This document shows, piece by piece, positions 19,256 to 30,475 of a DNA stretch of 64,000 bases. A program made the position numbers and the translations under genes. The notes beneath the pieces were generated by a model. That model was not told the DNA's origin. It saw nothing but the letters and a program-made list of their open reading frames with translations, and did not search any database. How positions within the stretch are numbered: position 1 is the stretch's first letter; every line of letters begins with the position of its first letter. Source of the DNA: Acutalibacteraceae bacterium (GTDB lineage: Bacteria > Bacillota > Clostridia > Oscillospirales > Acutalibacteraceae); contig JAZSNB010000118.1 of NCBI GenBank assembly GCA_045536195.1, positions 247 to 64,246 on the forward strand, read 5' to 3'.

Positions 19256-20317
19256 TTATACTTTATATGTCCAGCCCTTTGTGTCTTCCAGTATGCCCCA
19301 TTGGATGCCTGTGAGGGTGTCATAGAGCTTTTGGGTAAGGGTGCCTATGCAGTTATTGTTGATGACATACTCTTTGCCGTTATGGACAAGCTTTCCTATA
19401 GGAGAAATAACAGCAGCAGTGCCGCAGCCGAAGGCTTCCTCAAGGGTGCCGTTTTCGAGAGCGGAGATTATTTCGTCAACGCTGATTCTTCTTTCCTCGA
19501 CAGGGATTCCCTGATCCTTCAGAAGCTCTATAACAGAACGTCTTGTGATGCCGGGAAGAACTGTTCCGATAAGATCGGGAGTGACTACTTTTCCGTCGAT
19601 TCTGAACATAACATTCATGGAACCGACCTCTTCAACATACTTTCTTTCCACTCCGTCAAGCCAGAGCACCTGAGAGAAGCCGAGCTTTTCTGCTCTCTCG
19701 CCTGCCCTTGTGCTTGCGGCATAGTTGCCTCCGCACTTGGCATAACCCGTACCGCCCTTTACGGCTCGCACGTCCTGAGTTTCAATCATTATGCTTACGG
19801 GATTTATTCCCTCTTTATAATAGCTGCCGCTGGGGGAAGCTATTATTATAAACGAAGCCTCGTTTATACCGTGAAGTCCGAGATTTGCTTCGGTAGCAAT
19901 CATAAACGGACGGATATAAAGTGAGGTTCCCTCTTTGTGAGGCACGAAATCCTCTTCAAGCTTCACAAACTCGTGAAGAGCCTGCAAGGCATCATTCTCA
20001 TCGAGAACAGGCAGACACAGTCTTTCGGCAGAATCGTTCATTCTTCTGATATTATCAAGAGGTCTGAACATCTGCACACTGCCGTCTTTGGTTCTGTATG
20101 CCTTAAGTCCTTCAAACACCTCTGCGCCGTAGTGAAGCACCACAGCAGCAGGATGCAAAGACAAAGGTCCGAAGGGGACAATTCTTGCATCGTGCCAACC
20201 CTCAGCCTTATTATAATCCATAATAAACATATGGTCGGTATAAGTAAGACCGAAGCCGAGGTTATTTTCATCCGGCTTTTCCGACGGATGGGGATTAAGA
20301 ACTGTTTTTATATTCAT
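19256..20317 (-). CDS. ilvE: Branched-chain amino acid aminotransferase
   Basis: 353 aa (type IV PLP fold): GLTYTDHMF, EGLKAYR and GTGYAKCGGNYAAS. Confidence 0.9.
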   Translation of the reverse strand: MNIKTVLNPHPSEKPDENNLGFGLTYTDHMFIMDYNKAEGWHDARIVPFGPLSLHPAAVVLHYGAEVFEGLKAYRTKDGSVQMFRPLDNIRRMNDSAERLCLPVLDENDALQALHEFVKLEEDFVPHKEGTSLYIRPFMIATEANLGLHGINEASFIIIASPSGSYYKEGINPVSIMIETQDVRAVKGGTGYAKCGGNYAASTRAGERAEKLGFSQVLWLDGVERKYVEEVGSMNVMFRIDGKVVTPDLIGTVLPGITRRSVIELLKDQGIPVEERRISVDEIISALENGTLEEAFGCGTAAVISPIGKLVHNGKEYVINNNCIGTLTQKLYDTLTGIQWGILEDTKGWTYKV

Positions 20318-20329
20318 TTAATCGCCTTC

Positions 20330-20863
20330 TTAAAGAGCAGCACCTGTATTAAGTGCTTCAAGATTATATTTCAGCATATCCTGATGGCGTGCGGAAATAA
20401 CCTTATTAAGGGCAGCCTCAAGATTTTCGTTTCCGATTCCTTCAACTTCCTTGATTACCTTACCGGTGATGATCATATTTGCAAGTGTACTGATATTTTT
20501 TTCATTTGCAAGACCTGATGCGGGAACATAATACACATCAACGTCTGTTCTTTCAACCTTTCTTCCGATAAGAGTTGAGTCAACGAAAATCTTACCGCCG
20601 GGGGTAACTGCATTTTCATACTTATCAAGTGAAGGAAGATTCATAGCGATAAGCACGTCGGGCTTATCGACGATGGGTGAACCGATGGGATCATCGCTTA
20701 AAATAACTGAGCAGTTTGCAGTACCGCCTCTCATTTCGGGACCGTAGGAAGGAAGCCAGCTTACCTGTTTGCCCTCAATAAGACCCTTGTATGCAAGGAA
20801 TTTACCTGCAAAAAGAATACCCTGTCCGCCGAAGCCGGCAAAAAGCATATTAACAGTAGCCAT
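20330..20863 (-). CDS. 2-oxoacid:ferredoxin oxidoreductase, gamma subunit
   Basis: 177 aa: [17 protein letters not shown]...SYGPEMRGG. It lies 12 nt upstream of ilvE. Confidence 0.85.
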
Positions 20864-21624
20864 TATTCTGCCTCCTTTTCTGATGTTATATCCTTATAAA
20901 CACCTAAAGGATAGTAGGGAATCATATTCTCCTCAAGCCAGGTGAGAGCCTTTTCGGGAGTCATACCCCAGTTTGTGGGACAGGTGGAAACAACCTCAAT
21001 AAGAGAGAAGCCTTTTCCGTCTATCTGATTCTGGAAAGCCTTTTTGATAGCCTTCTTTGCATTTCTTACATTCTTTACGTTATTAACGGCAACTCTTTCA
21101 AGATAAGCTGCACCATCAACATTCTGAAGCATTTCGCATACCTTTACGGGATAGCCGACAGTGGATACATCTCTGCCGTAGGGTGAGGTCTGAGTAACCT
21201 GACCGGGAAGAGTTGTGGGAGCCATCTGACCGCCTGTCATACCGTAAATTGCATTGTTTACGAAAATAACGGTGATATTTTCTCTTCTTGCTGCAGCGTG
21301 AACTGTTTCTGCAGTACCTATAGCTGCAAGGTCACCGTCGCCCTGATATGTAAATACGATATTATCGGGATCTGATCTTTTAACACCTGTTGCAACAGCG
21401 GGAGCTCTGCCGTGAGCAGCCTGAACAAAGTCACAGGTAAAATAATTATATGCCATAACGGAACAGCCTACGGGAGCAACACCGATAGTCTTTCCTTCAA
21501 TGCCCAATTCATCAATAACTTCGGCAACAAGACGGTGGATTATACCGTGAGTACAGCCGGGACAATAGTGAAGAACTGCATCTGTAAGGGATTTGGGTTT
21601 CTGAAATACTATAGCCATACTCAA
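20863..21624 (-). CDS. 2-oxoacid:ferredoxin oxidoreductase, beta (TPP-binding) subunit
   Basis: 253 aa: CPGCTHG, GDGDLAAIG and NNAIYGMTGGQ. Its start and stop overlap the neighbouring subunit genes. Confidence 0.9.
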   Translation of the reverse strand: MSMAIVFQKPKSLTDAVLHYCPGCTHGIIHRLVAEVIDELGIEGKTIGVAPVGCSVMAYNYFTCDFVQAAHGRAPAVATGVKRSDPDNIVFTYQGDGDLAAIGTAETVHAAARRENITVIFVNNAIYGMTGGQMAPTTLPGQVTQTSPYGRDVSTVGYPVKVCEMLQNVDGAAYLERVAVNNVKNVRNAKKAIKKAFQNQIDGKGFSLIEVVSTCPTNWGMTPEKALTWLEENMIPYYPLGVYKDITSEKEAE

Positions 21625-22691
21625 GCCTCCTTTTCGTTTACTTCAACAATTTTTTCAAGCACCTGTTCGGGGGTGGGAATCATACCGCCTGTACGGCAGC
21701 AAAGGTGAACTTCCTTTTTACATCTGATGCTGAGCTCAATATCCTCTATCATCTGACCCATATTCATTTCAACAGAGATAAATGCCTTGCACTTATCGGC
21801 TGCCTTATTGAGCACTGCCTTGGGGAAGGGCCAGAGAGTGATGGGACGGATAAGTCCTGCCTTTATTCCCTTTTCGCGGGCAACATTTATTGCATTTTTT
21901 GCAACACGGGATGTGATACCGAATGCAACAACGCAGATTTCGGCATCATCCATAAGATATTCCTCATACATAGCCTCTGTTTCTTCAATGAGCTTGTATT
22001 TTTCATATCTTTCAAAATTCTTCTTTTCAAGCTCTTCAGGCTGAAGGAAAAGAGAGTTTACAATATTATGCTTTCTTTCACCCTTCGTGCCGGTTACAGC
22101 CCAGGGCTTTTCAACATTATATGTGCTTTCGATATCAAGAGAAACAGGCTCCATCATCTGACCCATTGTACCGTCGGCAAGAATCATTGAAACCATTCTG
22201 TATTTATCTGCAAGCTCAAAGCCCTTTACCGTAAGGCTTGCCATTTCCTGAACGGAAGCGGGAGCAAGGACAATATTGTGGAAGTCGCCGTGGCTTCCGC
22301 CCTTTACTGTCTGCCAATAGTCAGACTGAGAAGGCTGAATACCGCCGAGACCGGGGCCGCCTCTCTGAACATTTACAATAAGTGCGGGAAGATCACAGCC
22401 TGCAAGGTATGAAATACCCTCACTCTTGAGTGAAATTCCGGGGGAGGAAGAAGAGGTCATAACTCTTTTTCCGGTGGATGCTACACCTATAACCATATTG
22501 ATAGCGGCAATTTCGCTTTCAGCCTGAAGGAATGTGCCGCCGATTTTAGGCATTTTTTTGGACATATATGCCGCAACCTCAGTCTGAGGAGTAATAGGAT
22601 ATCCGAAGTAATGACGGCAGCCTGCCTTAATAGCGGCTTCAGCTATAGCTTCGTTACCCTTCATAAGTACCATATCGCTCATTTTTTTCAC
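21621..22691 (-). CDS. 2-oxoacid:ferredoxin oxidoreductase, alpha subunit
   Basis: 356 aa: LMKGNEAIAEAAIKAGCRHYFGYPITPQTE. Confidence 0.9.
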   Translation of the reverse strand: MKKMSDMVLMKGNEAIAEAAIKAGCRHYFGYPITPQTEVAAYMSKKMPKIGGTFLQAESEIAAINMVIGVASTGKRVMTSSSSPGISLKSEGISYLAGCDLPALIVNVQRGGPGLGGIQPSQSDYWQTVKGGSHGDFHNIVLAPASVQEMASLTVKGFELADKYRMVSMILADGTMGQMMEPVSLDIESTYNVEKPWAVTGTKGERKHNIVNSLFLQPEELEKKNFERYEKYKLIEETEAMYEEYLMDDAEICVVAFGITSRVAKNAINVAREKGIKAGLIRPITLWPFPKAVLNKAADKCKAFISVEMNMGQMIEDIELSIRCKKEVHLCCRTGGMIPTPEQVLEKIVEVNEKEA

Positions 22692-30101: not shown

Positions 30102-30159
30102 ACTAATTACTCCTTTAATTACCAAATAAATTCTCAATAGCTTTTTTCGTTTCCGGGGA

Positions 30160-30430
30160 CTTGTAACACAAAAAGTCCCCGAAACAAAAGTTTCAGGGAC
30201 GATAATATACCGCGGTACCACCCATATTGCTGATAAACAGCCGCTCTGAGGCTCTGACAAGCCTTTGGTCATGATAACGGAACCTGCCGCAATTCCCTAT
30301 AAGCCTTATTACGAAGGTGTTGAGAAACCGTGCTCAGATACGAGACAAACTGAAAAACCTGCTACCGCCTTTCAGCACACGGCGGCTCTCTGAAAACATA
30401 AATTAATCAGTCTTAATATCATCACTGCAT
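30160..30430 (-). promoter_or_regulatory. T-box riboswitch leader, Leu (CUC) specifier
   Basis: On the minus strand, Stem I has the K-turn GCAGUGAUGAUA ... UAUCUGAGCA, an AGAGAG bay and the specifier CUC followed by G (30342-30344). The T-box sequence is AAUAUGGGUGGUACCGCGG (30210-30228). The terminator is GUCCCUGAAAC-uuuu-GUUUCGGGGAC followed by UUUUUGUG. Confidence 0.85.
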
Positions 30431-30446
30431 TTGAAATGTTAAATGC

Positions 30447-30475
30447 AGTATACTAAAAAGAAGTAAACAAGTCAA
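30447..30475 (-). promoter_or_regulatory. Sigma-A type promoter for the T-box(Leu) operon
   Basis: Minus strand has TTGACT, a 17-nt spacer, then TATACT. Confidence 0.6.

Follow-up and report, generated by a model that had tools for sequence, protein, structure and literature searches.

What would a bacterium make from a locus in which acyl-CoA ligases, a 2-oxoacid:ferredoxin oxidoreductase (OFOR) and the transaminase IlvE lie behind T-box leaders, and in which direction would these enzymes run? The question is raised by positions 19256-30475 of a 64,000-nucleotide stretch of DNA from an Acutalibacteraceae bacterium (the whole stretch is called the window here), which hold nine closely packed minus-strand open reading frames (ORFs) with gaps of no more than 14 nucleotides. 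The ORFs fall into a Leu unit, encoding a LeuA-like protein (pseudo-LeuA) and a TIM barrel fused to a ligase (TIM-ligase), and an Ile unit, encoding a helix-turn-helix (HTH)-cupin-ligase fusion (HCLig), a P-loop protein, the OFOR subunits (vorDABG) and IlvE. A sequence-only reading of the same DNA had counted eleven genes, although its own gene list also sums to nine.

Since the 1960s, labelling work has shown that isoacids, the branched short-chain fatty acids that abound in gut and rumen, are converted to leucine, isoleucine and valine through reductive carboxylation, and the rumen pathway was reportedly defined in this way by Allison and co-workers, so far as could be found without genes or regulation. 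It is probable that the locus described here turns isovalerate and 2-methylbutyrate into leucine and isoleucine by this chemistry, as an anabolic salvage route whose ligases stand under matching T-boxes. Such an isoacid route to the branched-chain amino acids (BCAAs) had been proposed in the sequence-only reading; its computationally testable parts came out as predicted, and the comparative data strengthen the case. PMC7356843 cites Allison labelling papers on the isoacid pathway of rumen bacteria.

T-box leaders and specifier codons

Each unit is headed by a leader that matches the T-box model RF00230 in full (1-219), with 90.6 bits for the Ile unit (E 2.1e-20) and 90.0 bits for the Leu unit (E 3.1e-20). 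Both scores fall 2.4-3 bits short of the gathering score of 93 bits, and a scan of the whole window against Rfam at the gathering threshold returned the glmS ribozyme only, the T-boxes emerging in E-value mode. This miss is marginal and gives no reason to question the leaders as T-boxes. The sequence-only reading had proposed the RF00230 search and had given each operon its own promoter and T-box leader; the search returned T-box matches at E ~1e-20, though just below the gathering score, and each leader has a sigma-70-like promoter before it and is ended by a terminator hairpin with a T run. Standard annotation would miss both T-boxes, which lie below the Rfam threshold, and many of the approximately 160 homologous leaders may escape it likewise.

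The T-box sequence, GGUGGUACCGCG or GAGUGGUACCGCG, is present and does not vary among the 34 leaders of an alignment. A UGGU bulge occurs in every leader, and it pairs with the A73 discriminator common to tRNA-Leu, tRNA-Ile and tRNA-Val. According to the covariance-model alignment, the upstream leader has CUC-G on the 3' side of its specifier loop, and the downstream leader has AUC-G there.

Relatives were collected by scanning an HCLig alignment against one genome per species, which placed the HCLig fusion in at least 590 species-level genomes; the locus, synteny and leader figures given here are drawn from the best 80 HCLig loci. T-box core motifs lie upstream of 129 HCLig copies and 27 pseudo-LeuA genes of these relatives. 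For the specifier reading, 161 leaders were added to the 34-leader alignment, in which the specifier loop aligns cleanly, and their codons were taken from the specifier columns; 151 of the 161 were assigned to a downstream gene, the other 10 having mostly a sequence end nearby or no match in range. Leaders before orthologues of the window HCLig (identity of 66% or more) read AUC in 72 of 72 cases, those before a second HCLig paralogue (n=52) read GUA in 48 cases and GUC in 4, and those before pseudo-LeuA (n=27) read CUC in 21 and CUG in 6, such that codon and downstream gene class agree with zero exceptions in 151 leaders. The order of Leu then Ile specificity, as first read from the window, is thus confirmed by both the covariance-model alignment and the homologous leaders, and the wider idea of a BCAA-directed T-box logic gains from the third, Val-specific T-box of the relatives, which leaves one BCAA to each ligase. 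The B. subtilis leuS, ileS and valS leaders likewise use CUC, AUC and GUA, respectively.

With -10-like boxes visible in the leader alignment, each unit also appears to have its own promoter in the relatives. Control of the leaders by uncharged cognate tRNA is predicted from the match of leader sequence and structure to RF00230, whose members precede aminoacyl-tRNA synthetase genes and ilv-leu operons in Firmicutes and are alike in Stem I with its specifier loop, in the T-box sequence with a UGGN bulge and in the terminator. However, known T-boxes govern synthetases, transporters and classical ilv/leu enzymes, whereas those of this locus precede acyl-CoA ligases, a ferredoxin oxidoreductase and a transaminase. 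Also unlike the known cases, up to three T-boxes of differing specificity stand in one locus, one per ligase.

The three-unit locus of related genomes

Almost all of the best 80 loci come from uncultured Oscillospirales-type metagenome-assembled genomes (MAGs), labelled as Acutalibacteraceae, Oscillospiraceae, Christensenellaceae and others, and recovered from ruminant, horse and human gut samples. The nine window proteins were mapped onto these loci, 47 of which have enough downstream sequence for synteny. The co-occurrence of the gene set in related genomes, which the sequence-only reading had offered as a check, is evident from this survey. The P-loop gene and vorDABG are found together in 45 of the 47 loci, with the P-loop gene immediately upstream of vorD in all 45; ilvE is present in 39 of the 47, and pseudo-LeuA lies within 10 kb in 34. 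Where there is room to check, TIM-ligase directly follows pseudo-LeuA (31/31). The pair itself is found upstream (13 loci), downstream (14) or in divergent orientation (7), and linkage is thus kept despite rearrangement. Conservation of this arrangement across dozens of species is far beyond chance.

In some relatives (L039, L052, L055, L059, L060, L062, L072 and L078) ilvE precedes the P-loop gene, giving the order ligase-ilvE-Ploop-vorDABG. The junction of the P-loop gene with vorD is unbroken even where ilvE has moved.

Two tandem HCLig paralogues are present in 36 of the 47 loci, and the remaining 11 have a single copy, as in the window. The common locus can be written as T-box(Ile)-HCLig1; T-box(Val)-HCLig2-Ploop-vorDABG-ilvE; T-box(Leu)-pseudoLeuA-TIMligase. 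In most loci, L003 (L003:12302-12552), L007 and L010 being examples, the P-loop gene is separated from the Ile ligase by the Val unit. There is no Val unit in the window or in the relatives nearest to it (L001, L047 and L065, at 93-95% identity), and in this lineage the Ile-type ligase is joined directly to Ploop-vor-ilvE. The window is therefore a reduced, two-unit version of a three-unit system.

The HTH-cupin-ligase of the Ile and Val units

HCLig consists of an XRE-type HTH domain and a cupin fused to an AMP-forming ligase of the MacsMa/MbcS kind. The ligase domain aligns end to end with MacsMa of Methanosarcina acetivorans (PDB 3ETC; E 3.8e-191, 640 bits, 513 residues). The pocket tryptophan is kept (W259 of MacsMa is W464 of HCLig, the chain offset being fixed by the motif III numbering in PMC10455477), and motif III, YHTGD, is conserved. 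MacsMa prefers 2-methylbutyrate (PMC10455477). The best NCBIfam family of the domain is S. aureus MbcS (NF047394), which as a purified enzyme selectively activates 2-methylbutyrate and isobutyrate, with isovalerate as a poor substrate (PMC10026030). Such a substrate pattern would explain why an MbcS-type ligase stands in the Ile and Val units and a ligase of another family in the Leu unit. The HCLig of the Ile unit is accordingly put forward, from these similarities, as a candidate 2-methylbutyrate-CoA ligase. MacsMa and MbcS resemble the HCLig ligase domain and both prefer alpha-branched short acids; they differ from HCLig in that an N-terminal XRE-HTH and cupin module of ~240 aa is absent from both, and in that HCLig is found under T-box control next to VOR and IlvE.

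A single residue of the ligase domain fully separates the two paralogue classes, namely residue 460, directly after the TGW motif, which is glycine in the Ile class and alanine in the Val class. This position would correspond to an acyl-pocket residue of acetyl-CoA synthetase (Acs Val310/Ile312), although the open-access literature yielded no source to cite for the mapping. For the smaller acid of the Val class, a smaller pocket would be suitable.

The HTH-cupin module was searched exhaustively, yielding 1823 representative clusters, many of them stand-alone proteins of ~185 aa with 32-45% identity. Given these stand-alone relatives, the module appears to be an entire XRE-cupin regulator acquired through fusion. 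Class-specific residues for Ile versus Val occupy 9 of 195 positions in the module and 1 of 511 in the ligase domain (Fisher p = 6e-5), and identity between the classes is 0.46-0.51 in the module versus 0.73 in the ligase domain. By both figures, the specialisation of the paralogues lies mainly in the sensor-like part. A sequence search of the PDB with the module gave no match.

Fusions of a DNA-binding domain to a metabolic enzyme are known from BirA (the biotin protein ligase and repressor) and PutA, and BirA is itself an adenylate-forming enzyme with an N-terminal HTH. The likeness to HCLig is an analogy only, with no sequence relationship between the proteins; in addition, the module of HCLig is a complete XRE-cupin unit, and no operator was found for it.

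Pseudo-LeuA and the TIM-ligase of the Leu unit

Pseudo-LeuA combines an HMGL-like barrel that is without catalytic residues with a LeuA_dimer domain (PF08502, 105.6 bits against a cut-off of 24.9). Against the equivalog models for 2-isopropylmalate synthase, its best score is 266 bits with a cut-off of 532 (NF002086), and it falls far below the cut-offs of the other models for this enzyme, for citramalate synthase (CimA) and for homocitrate synthase (NifV). When the protein is aligned to the LeuA structures of Listeria and Neisseria (3EWB and 3RMJ), the motif DTTLRDGEQ reads DKTMLNLDS and HCHDD reads DVSDA. With RD replaced by LN and HxH by DxS, the substrate arginine, the metal-binding aspartate and both histidines are gone. 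Across 44 homologues the four lost positions are hypervariable, whereas the LeuA_dimer domain is the best-conserved part of the protein, with a mean top-residue frequency of 0.76 versus 0.53 for the barrel. A catalytic LeuA was consequently rejected, on the equivalog scores and the lost residues, and the LeuA-like pseudo-enzyme of the sequence-only reading holds up. The start codon is confirmed by the length of the homologues, 466-472 aa, and the family is labelled by NCBI as "hypothetical" or "regulatory domain-containing".

The domain order of barrel, linker and LeuA_dimer is the same as that of LeuA itself, the 2-isopropylmalate synthase, a DRE-TIM metallolyase that is feedback-inhibited by leucine, and the well-conserved regulatory domain is the part held in common. 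Unlike LeuA, pseudo-LeuA has no substrate arginine, metal aspartate or HxH, and it is paired with TIM-ligase and not with leuBCD. The most economical reading of these features is that pseudo-LeuA may be a leucine-binding regulatory subunit of the translationally coupled TIM-ligase.

TIM-ligase joins a xylose-isomerase-like TIM barrel (PF01261, scoring 49.9 with a cut-off of 31.1) to an AMP-forming acyl-CoA ligase. The barrel was modelled with AlphaFold2 at a pLDDT of 90, and the best Foldseek match of the model is UlaE (3CQJ, TM 0.77, ~15% identity), placing the fold among UlaE/ketose-3-epimerase-like barrels. In the window protein, the canonical Glu-Asp-His-Glu metal site at the ends of strands 5-8 is incomplete, reading E135, N163, K190 and E229, positions that were mapped by strand position in the model and not by explicit superposition. 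In the family, N or D is found at 163, H, R or K at 190, and E, V or A at 229. Invariant or nearly invariant residues of the domain are E31, W162, D193, E205 and G206. The domain is essentially confined to this fusion and evolves fast (0.51, with 0.81 in the ligase part); that it serves in docking or regulation is a guess. The ligase part belongs to a different family than the ligases of the Ile and Val units, with PRK12583 as its best match, and is a candidate isovalerate-CoA ligase.

The oxidoreductase, IlvE and the P-loop protein

The OFOR is complete, with delta, alpha, beta and gamma domains all present, including those for thiamine pyrophosphate and Fe-S clusters. Its alpha subunit scores 546 bits against NF005507 (VorB family, cut-off 399), and IlvE passes two equivalogs, NF009897 (477 bits, cut-off 307) and TIGR01123 (401 bits, cut-off 250). 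The assignment of four OFOR subunits and IlvE in the sequence-only reading is thus well founded for the alpha subunit and IlvE by NCBIfam cut-offs, and the domain content that it gave for the two operons as a whole is reproduced by Pfam and NCBIfam. From the family match, the OFOR is predicted to be VOR-type, with branched-chain substrates. The production of 2-oxoisovalerate with isobutyryl-CoA and CO2 as substrates has been established for Methanothermobacter (PMC3087415). The chemistry proposed for the window is identical to that of the anabolic Methanothermobacter VOR and of rumen isoacid carboxylation, in that acyl-CoA, CO2 and reduced ferredoxin give a 2-oxoacid, which is then transaminated. 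What sets the window OFOR apart from the Methanothermobacter VOR is its four separate subunits and the invariably adjacent P-loop NTPase.

In the case of the P-loop protein, which had been described as a MinD/CooC-like ATPase, family and structure searches find a match around Walker A only. This places it in the MinD/ParA/Mrp class, as suggested; nothing more specific emerged, and CooC was dropped, with no CooC family among the matches. Searches of the PDB with the single sequence and with a 29-sequence profile returned only Walker A matches to MinD, FleN, ArsA and Mrp, and a single-sequence AlphaFold model was unusable (pLDDT 42). Conserved features are Walker A, DLDIVNPYFR, DxGGDDRGA and NxYRPLT. 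Cysteine is absent from the invariant and nearly invariant columns of 29 homologues, on which ground a NifH-like electron-pumping Fe-S ATPase was rejected. The protein is a conserved partner of the OFOR, and a role in OFOR maturation is a guess.

The proposed pathway and its control

The analysis shows the RNA elements with their codons, the domains, the lost catalytic residues, the synteny and the nearest characterised relatives; from these we infer which acids enter the pathway, that it runs reductively, and what pseudo-LeuA, the TIM domain, the HTH-cupin module and the P-loop protein do. In the first step, an AMP-forming ligase would convert the acid to its CoA thioester, the substrate being 2-methylbutyrate for HCLig of the Ile unit, isovalerate for TIM-ligase of the Leu unit and, in relatives, isobutyrate for the HCLig paralogue of the Val unit. 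The four-subunit VOR-type OFOR would then act as a synthase, forming 2-oxoacid and CoA from acyl-CoA, CO2 and reduced ferredoxin, and IlvE would transaminate the 2-oxoacid to isoleucine, leucine or valine. As for control, uncharged tRNA-Ile or tRNA-Leu would hold the leader in its antiterminator form, and transcription would continue, the specifier of each T-box corresponding to the amino acid that would be derived from the acid of the ligase behind it. The combination of AMP-forming ligases with induction by uncharged tRNA argues for a biosynthetic, and not a fermentative, direction.

A second and weaker layer of the scheme would act on the proteins themselves, with pseudo-LeuA as a leucine-sensing regulatory subunit that uses the allosteric domain of LeuA, and the HTH-cupin of the Ile and Val ligases as a sensor specific for end product or substrate. 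Such feedback from captured regulators, in which the dead LeuA would gate the isovalerate-CoA ligase by docking to its degenerate TIM barrel and the XRE-cupin would sense the cognate amino acid or acid, is a tentative suggestion that we regard as possible and rather doubtful. By the same feedback reading, the XRE-cupin module might also bind DNA, as BirA does.

Several observations weigh against the salvage pathway or against parts of it. In the window, VOR and IlvE stand behind the Ile T-box only (in three-unit loci, behind the Val T-box). With the shared enzymes so placed, starvation for leucine alone would induce the isovalerate ligase and not obviously VOR and IlvE, and their induction by leucine shortage alone would need leaky termination, basal transcription or co-varying amino acid pools. 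TIM-ligase scores below the cut-off of its best NCBIfam model and its solved relatives are generic acyl-CoA ligases, its presumed substrate being drawn from the Leu T-box context only; likewise, the ligase domain of HCLig reaches 432 bits with NF047394, below the MbcS equivalog cut-off of 850. As regards the regulatory layer, a PDB sequence search with the regulatory domain of pseudo-LeuA found no solved close relative, and leucine binding is putative; a search for operators as frequent k-mers in the upstream regions found only the -35 box and the T-box 5' end to be shared, leaving DNA binding by the HTH domain unsupported. Lastly, the proteins of the locus are known from computation alone, and all relatives found are uncultured MAGs.

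Alternative explanations

The ligases could instead supply branched acyl-CoA primers for membrane fatty acids, with VOR and IlvE working oxidatively when amino acids are available. MbcS, the best NCBIfam match of the Ile-unit ligase, has such a primer role in S. aureus, and ruminococci are said, from Allison-era work, to put isoacids into lipids as well as into amino acids. However, induction by uncharged tRNA reports a shortage of amino acids and not a need for lipid, an oxidative VOR would use up the amino acid that is scarce, and primer supply would not need one ligase per amino acid with a matching specifier. The placement of ligase, VOR and IlvE behind one T-box fits a series that runs toward the amino acid, and lipid supply is improbable as the purpose of the locus, although the two uses are not exclusive and one acyl-CoA pool could feed both. 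Still further from the observations, and very improbable, is a catabolic locus in which IlvE and VOR oxidise BCAAs to acyl-CoAs for fermentation, the ligases being unrelated or reversible. Many gut Clostridia do run IlvE-type transaminases and OFORs oxidatively to isoacids, as is generally known (for instance, from the porA work), but AMP-forming ligases are effectively irreversible toward the thioester, and the locus encodes no step from acyl-CoA to ATP. The ADP-forming synthetase or phosphotransbutyrylase/butyrate kinase that fermenters use to conserve ATP is absent from it. Moreover, a T-box activates its genes under scarcity of the amino acid, the reverse of what catabolism would call for.

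It is also conceivable that the T-box and OFOR framework is right and that the substrates or roles of the ligases differ, with another leucine-related acid being activated or new chemistry taking place at the two degenerate barrels. The invariant residues that the TIM domain has of its own (E31 to G206, as listed above), the barrel motifs that pseudo-LeuA keeps (such as MEY and EF.A.DATR) and the lack of a specific characterised relative for the ligase domain of TIM-ligase would all be accounted for in this way. Against it, the Leu specifier is invariant across leaders, the locus would otherwise be without an activating enzyme for the third isoacid, and a separate isovalerate ligase is to be expected, MbcS-type ligases being poor with that acid. 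The hypervariable catalytic positions of pseudo-LeuA suggest decay rather than a redesigned site. An altered substrate or role is thus unlikely, and isoacid salvage into leucine and isoleucine is the reading retained here.

Organisation of the locus and its surroundings

The tight packing and the overlapping start and stop codons of the sequence-only reading are seen at the gene junctions (Table 1), with gaps of 0-14 nucleotides and overlaps of 1 and 4 nucleotides. In the Leu unit, pseudo-LeuA and TIM-ligase overlap by 1 nucleotide. In the Ile unit, HCLig is separated from the P-loop gene by 5 nucleotides and the P-loop gene from vorD by 14; vorD/vorA and vorA/vorB overlap by 4 nucleotides each and vorB/vorG by 1, and 12 nucleotides separate vorG from ilvE. 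No terminator was detected between the end of TIM-ligase and the promoter and T-box of the Ile unit (26163-26200). Transcription that starts at the Leu unit would hence continue into the Ile T-box, and this read-through is a possible coupling of both units.

Table 1. Coordinates of the features of the Leu and Ile units and their borders in the window
Feature	Position	Strand	Basis or remark
Flanking terminator upstream of Leu-unit promoter	30507-30545	both strands	near-perfect palindrome, 18-bp stem
Promoter-like site, Leu unit (TTGACT-17-TATACT)	30447-30475	-	10/12 consensus matches; consensus match only
T-box leader, Leu unit	30192-30434	-	RF00230, specifier CUC then G, bulge UGGU
Intrinsic terminator, Leu T-box	30175-30200	-	11-bp stem and T run; overlaps 3' end of T-box match
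Pseudo-LeuA, 467 aa	28698-30101	-	Pfam HMGL-like and LeuA_dimer
TIM-ligase, 832 aa	26200-28698	-	Pfam AP_endonuc_2 TIM barrel and AMP-binding
Promoter-like site, Ile unit (TTGACA-17-TATTAT, extended TG)	26134-26162	-	11/12 consensus matches
T-box leader, Ile unit	25888-26129	-	RF00230, specifier AUC then G, bulge UGGU
Intrinsic terminator, Ile T-box	25869-25899	-	13-bp stem and T run
HTH-cupin-ligase (HCLig), 755 aa	23571-25838	-	Pfam HTH_19, Cupin_2 and AMP-binding
P-loop NTPase, 218 aa, CbiA/ParA class (MinD/ParA/Mrp)	22909-23565	-	Pfam/NCBIfam
OFOR delta (vorD), 68 aa, 2x[4Fe-4S] ferredoxin-like	22688-22894	-	Fer4
OFOR alpha (vorA), 356 aa, VorB family	21621-22691	-	POR_N/PFOR_II; NF005507
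OFOR beta (vorB), 253 aa, TPP-binding	20863-21624	-	TPP_enzyme_C
OFOR gamma (vorG), 177 aa	20330-20863	-	POR domain
IlvE, 353 aa, class IV aminotransferase	19256-20317	-	NF009897, TIGR01123
Terminator closing Ile unit	19199-19235	-	17-bp stem

The flanking palindrome scores as a terminator on both strands and separates the upstream 311-aa gene (30560-31495, minus strand) from the Leu-unit promoter. This gene is one of three sizeable ORFs without a Pfam match (E 1e-5 or 1e-6), the others being a 432-aa ORF (17686-18984, minus strand) that lies directly downstream of ilvE with its own promoter-like site (19189-19161), and a 1146-aa ORF (970-4410, minus strand). Just upstream of the locus, a 2299-aa ORF (32337-39236, minus strand) has Pfam matches to MBG_2 and YDG only and is probably a large surface protein. 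De novo ilv/leu genes do not occur among those annotated in the 64-kb window. The glmS ribozyme of the window (RF00234, 65.4 bits, E 8.6e-13; 61308-61442, minus strand) precedes a GlmS gene with SIS and GATase domains (59435-61258, minus strand), an ordinary Firmicutes arrangement.

Implications

Carboxylation chemistry, T-boxes, the VOR family and MacsMa/MbcS-type ligases are already known. What appears to be undescribed is a conserved gene set assigned to isoacid carboxylation in gut and rumen Clostridia, the pairing of each amino acid and each ligase with its own T-box, and the accessory modules, namely the pseudo-LeuA/TIM-ligase pair, the HTH-cupin-ligase fusions and the VOR-linked P-loop protein. 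In the open-access literature, no link of T-boxes to isoacid ligases or VOR was found, nor a gene-level account of isoacid carboxylation for gut or rumen Clostridia. The suspicion that the unusual accessories belong to an uncharacterised system is, within that literature, consistent with this. Standard annotation hides the system, with its T-boxes below threshold and its pseudo-LeuA under uninformative labels.

Isoacids serve fibre-degrading rumen bacteria as growth factors and are marketed as feed additives. The locus offers a candidate gene for every step of the pathway and a specificity prediction for each of the three ligases, and it can serve as a genomic marker in at least 590 species-level genomes. 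It also widens the known range of T-box regulons, and in pseudo-LeuA it provides a clear example of a pseudoenzyme in which nothing but the allosteric domain has been kept. If the protein-level feedback holds true, the feedback sensor of the gatekeeper enzyme in the de novo pathway would have passed to the salvage route once that enzyme had lost catalysis, and control of each branch would be double, through tRNA charging at the level of RNA and through ligand at the level of the enzyme.

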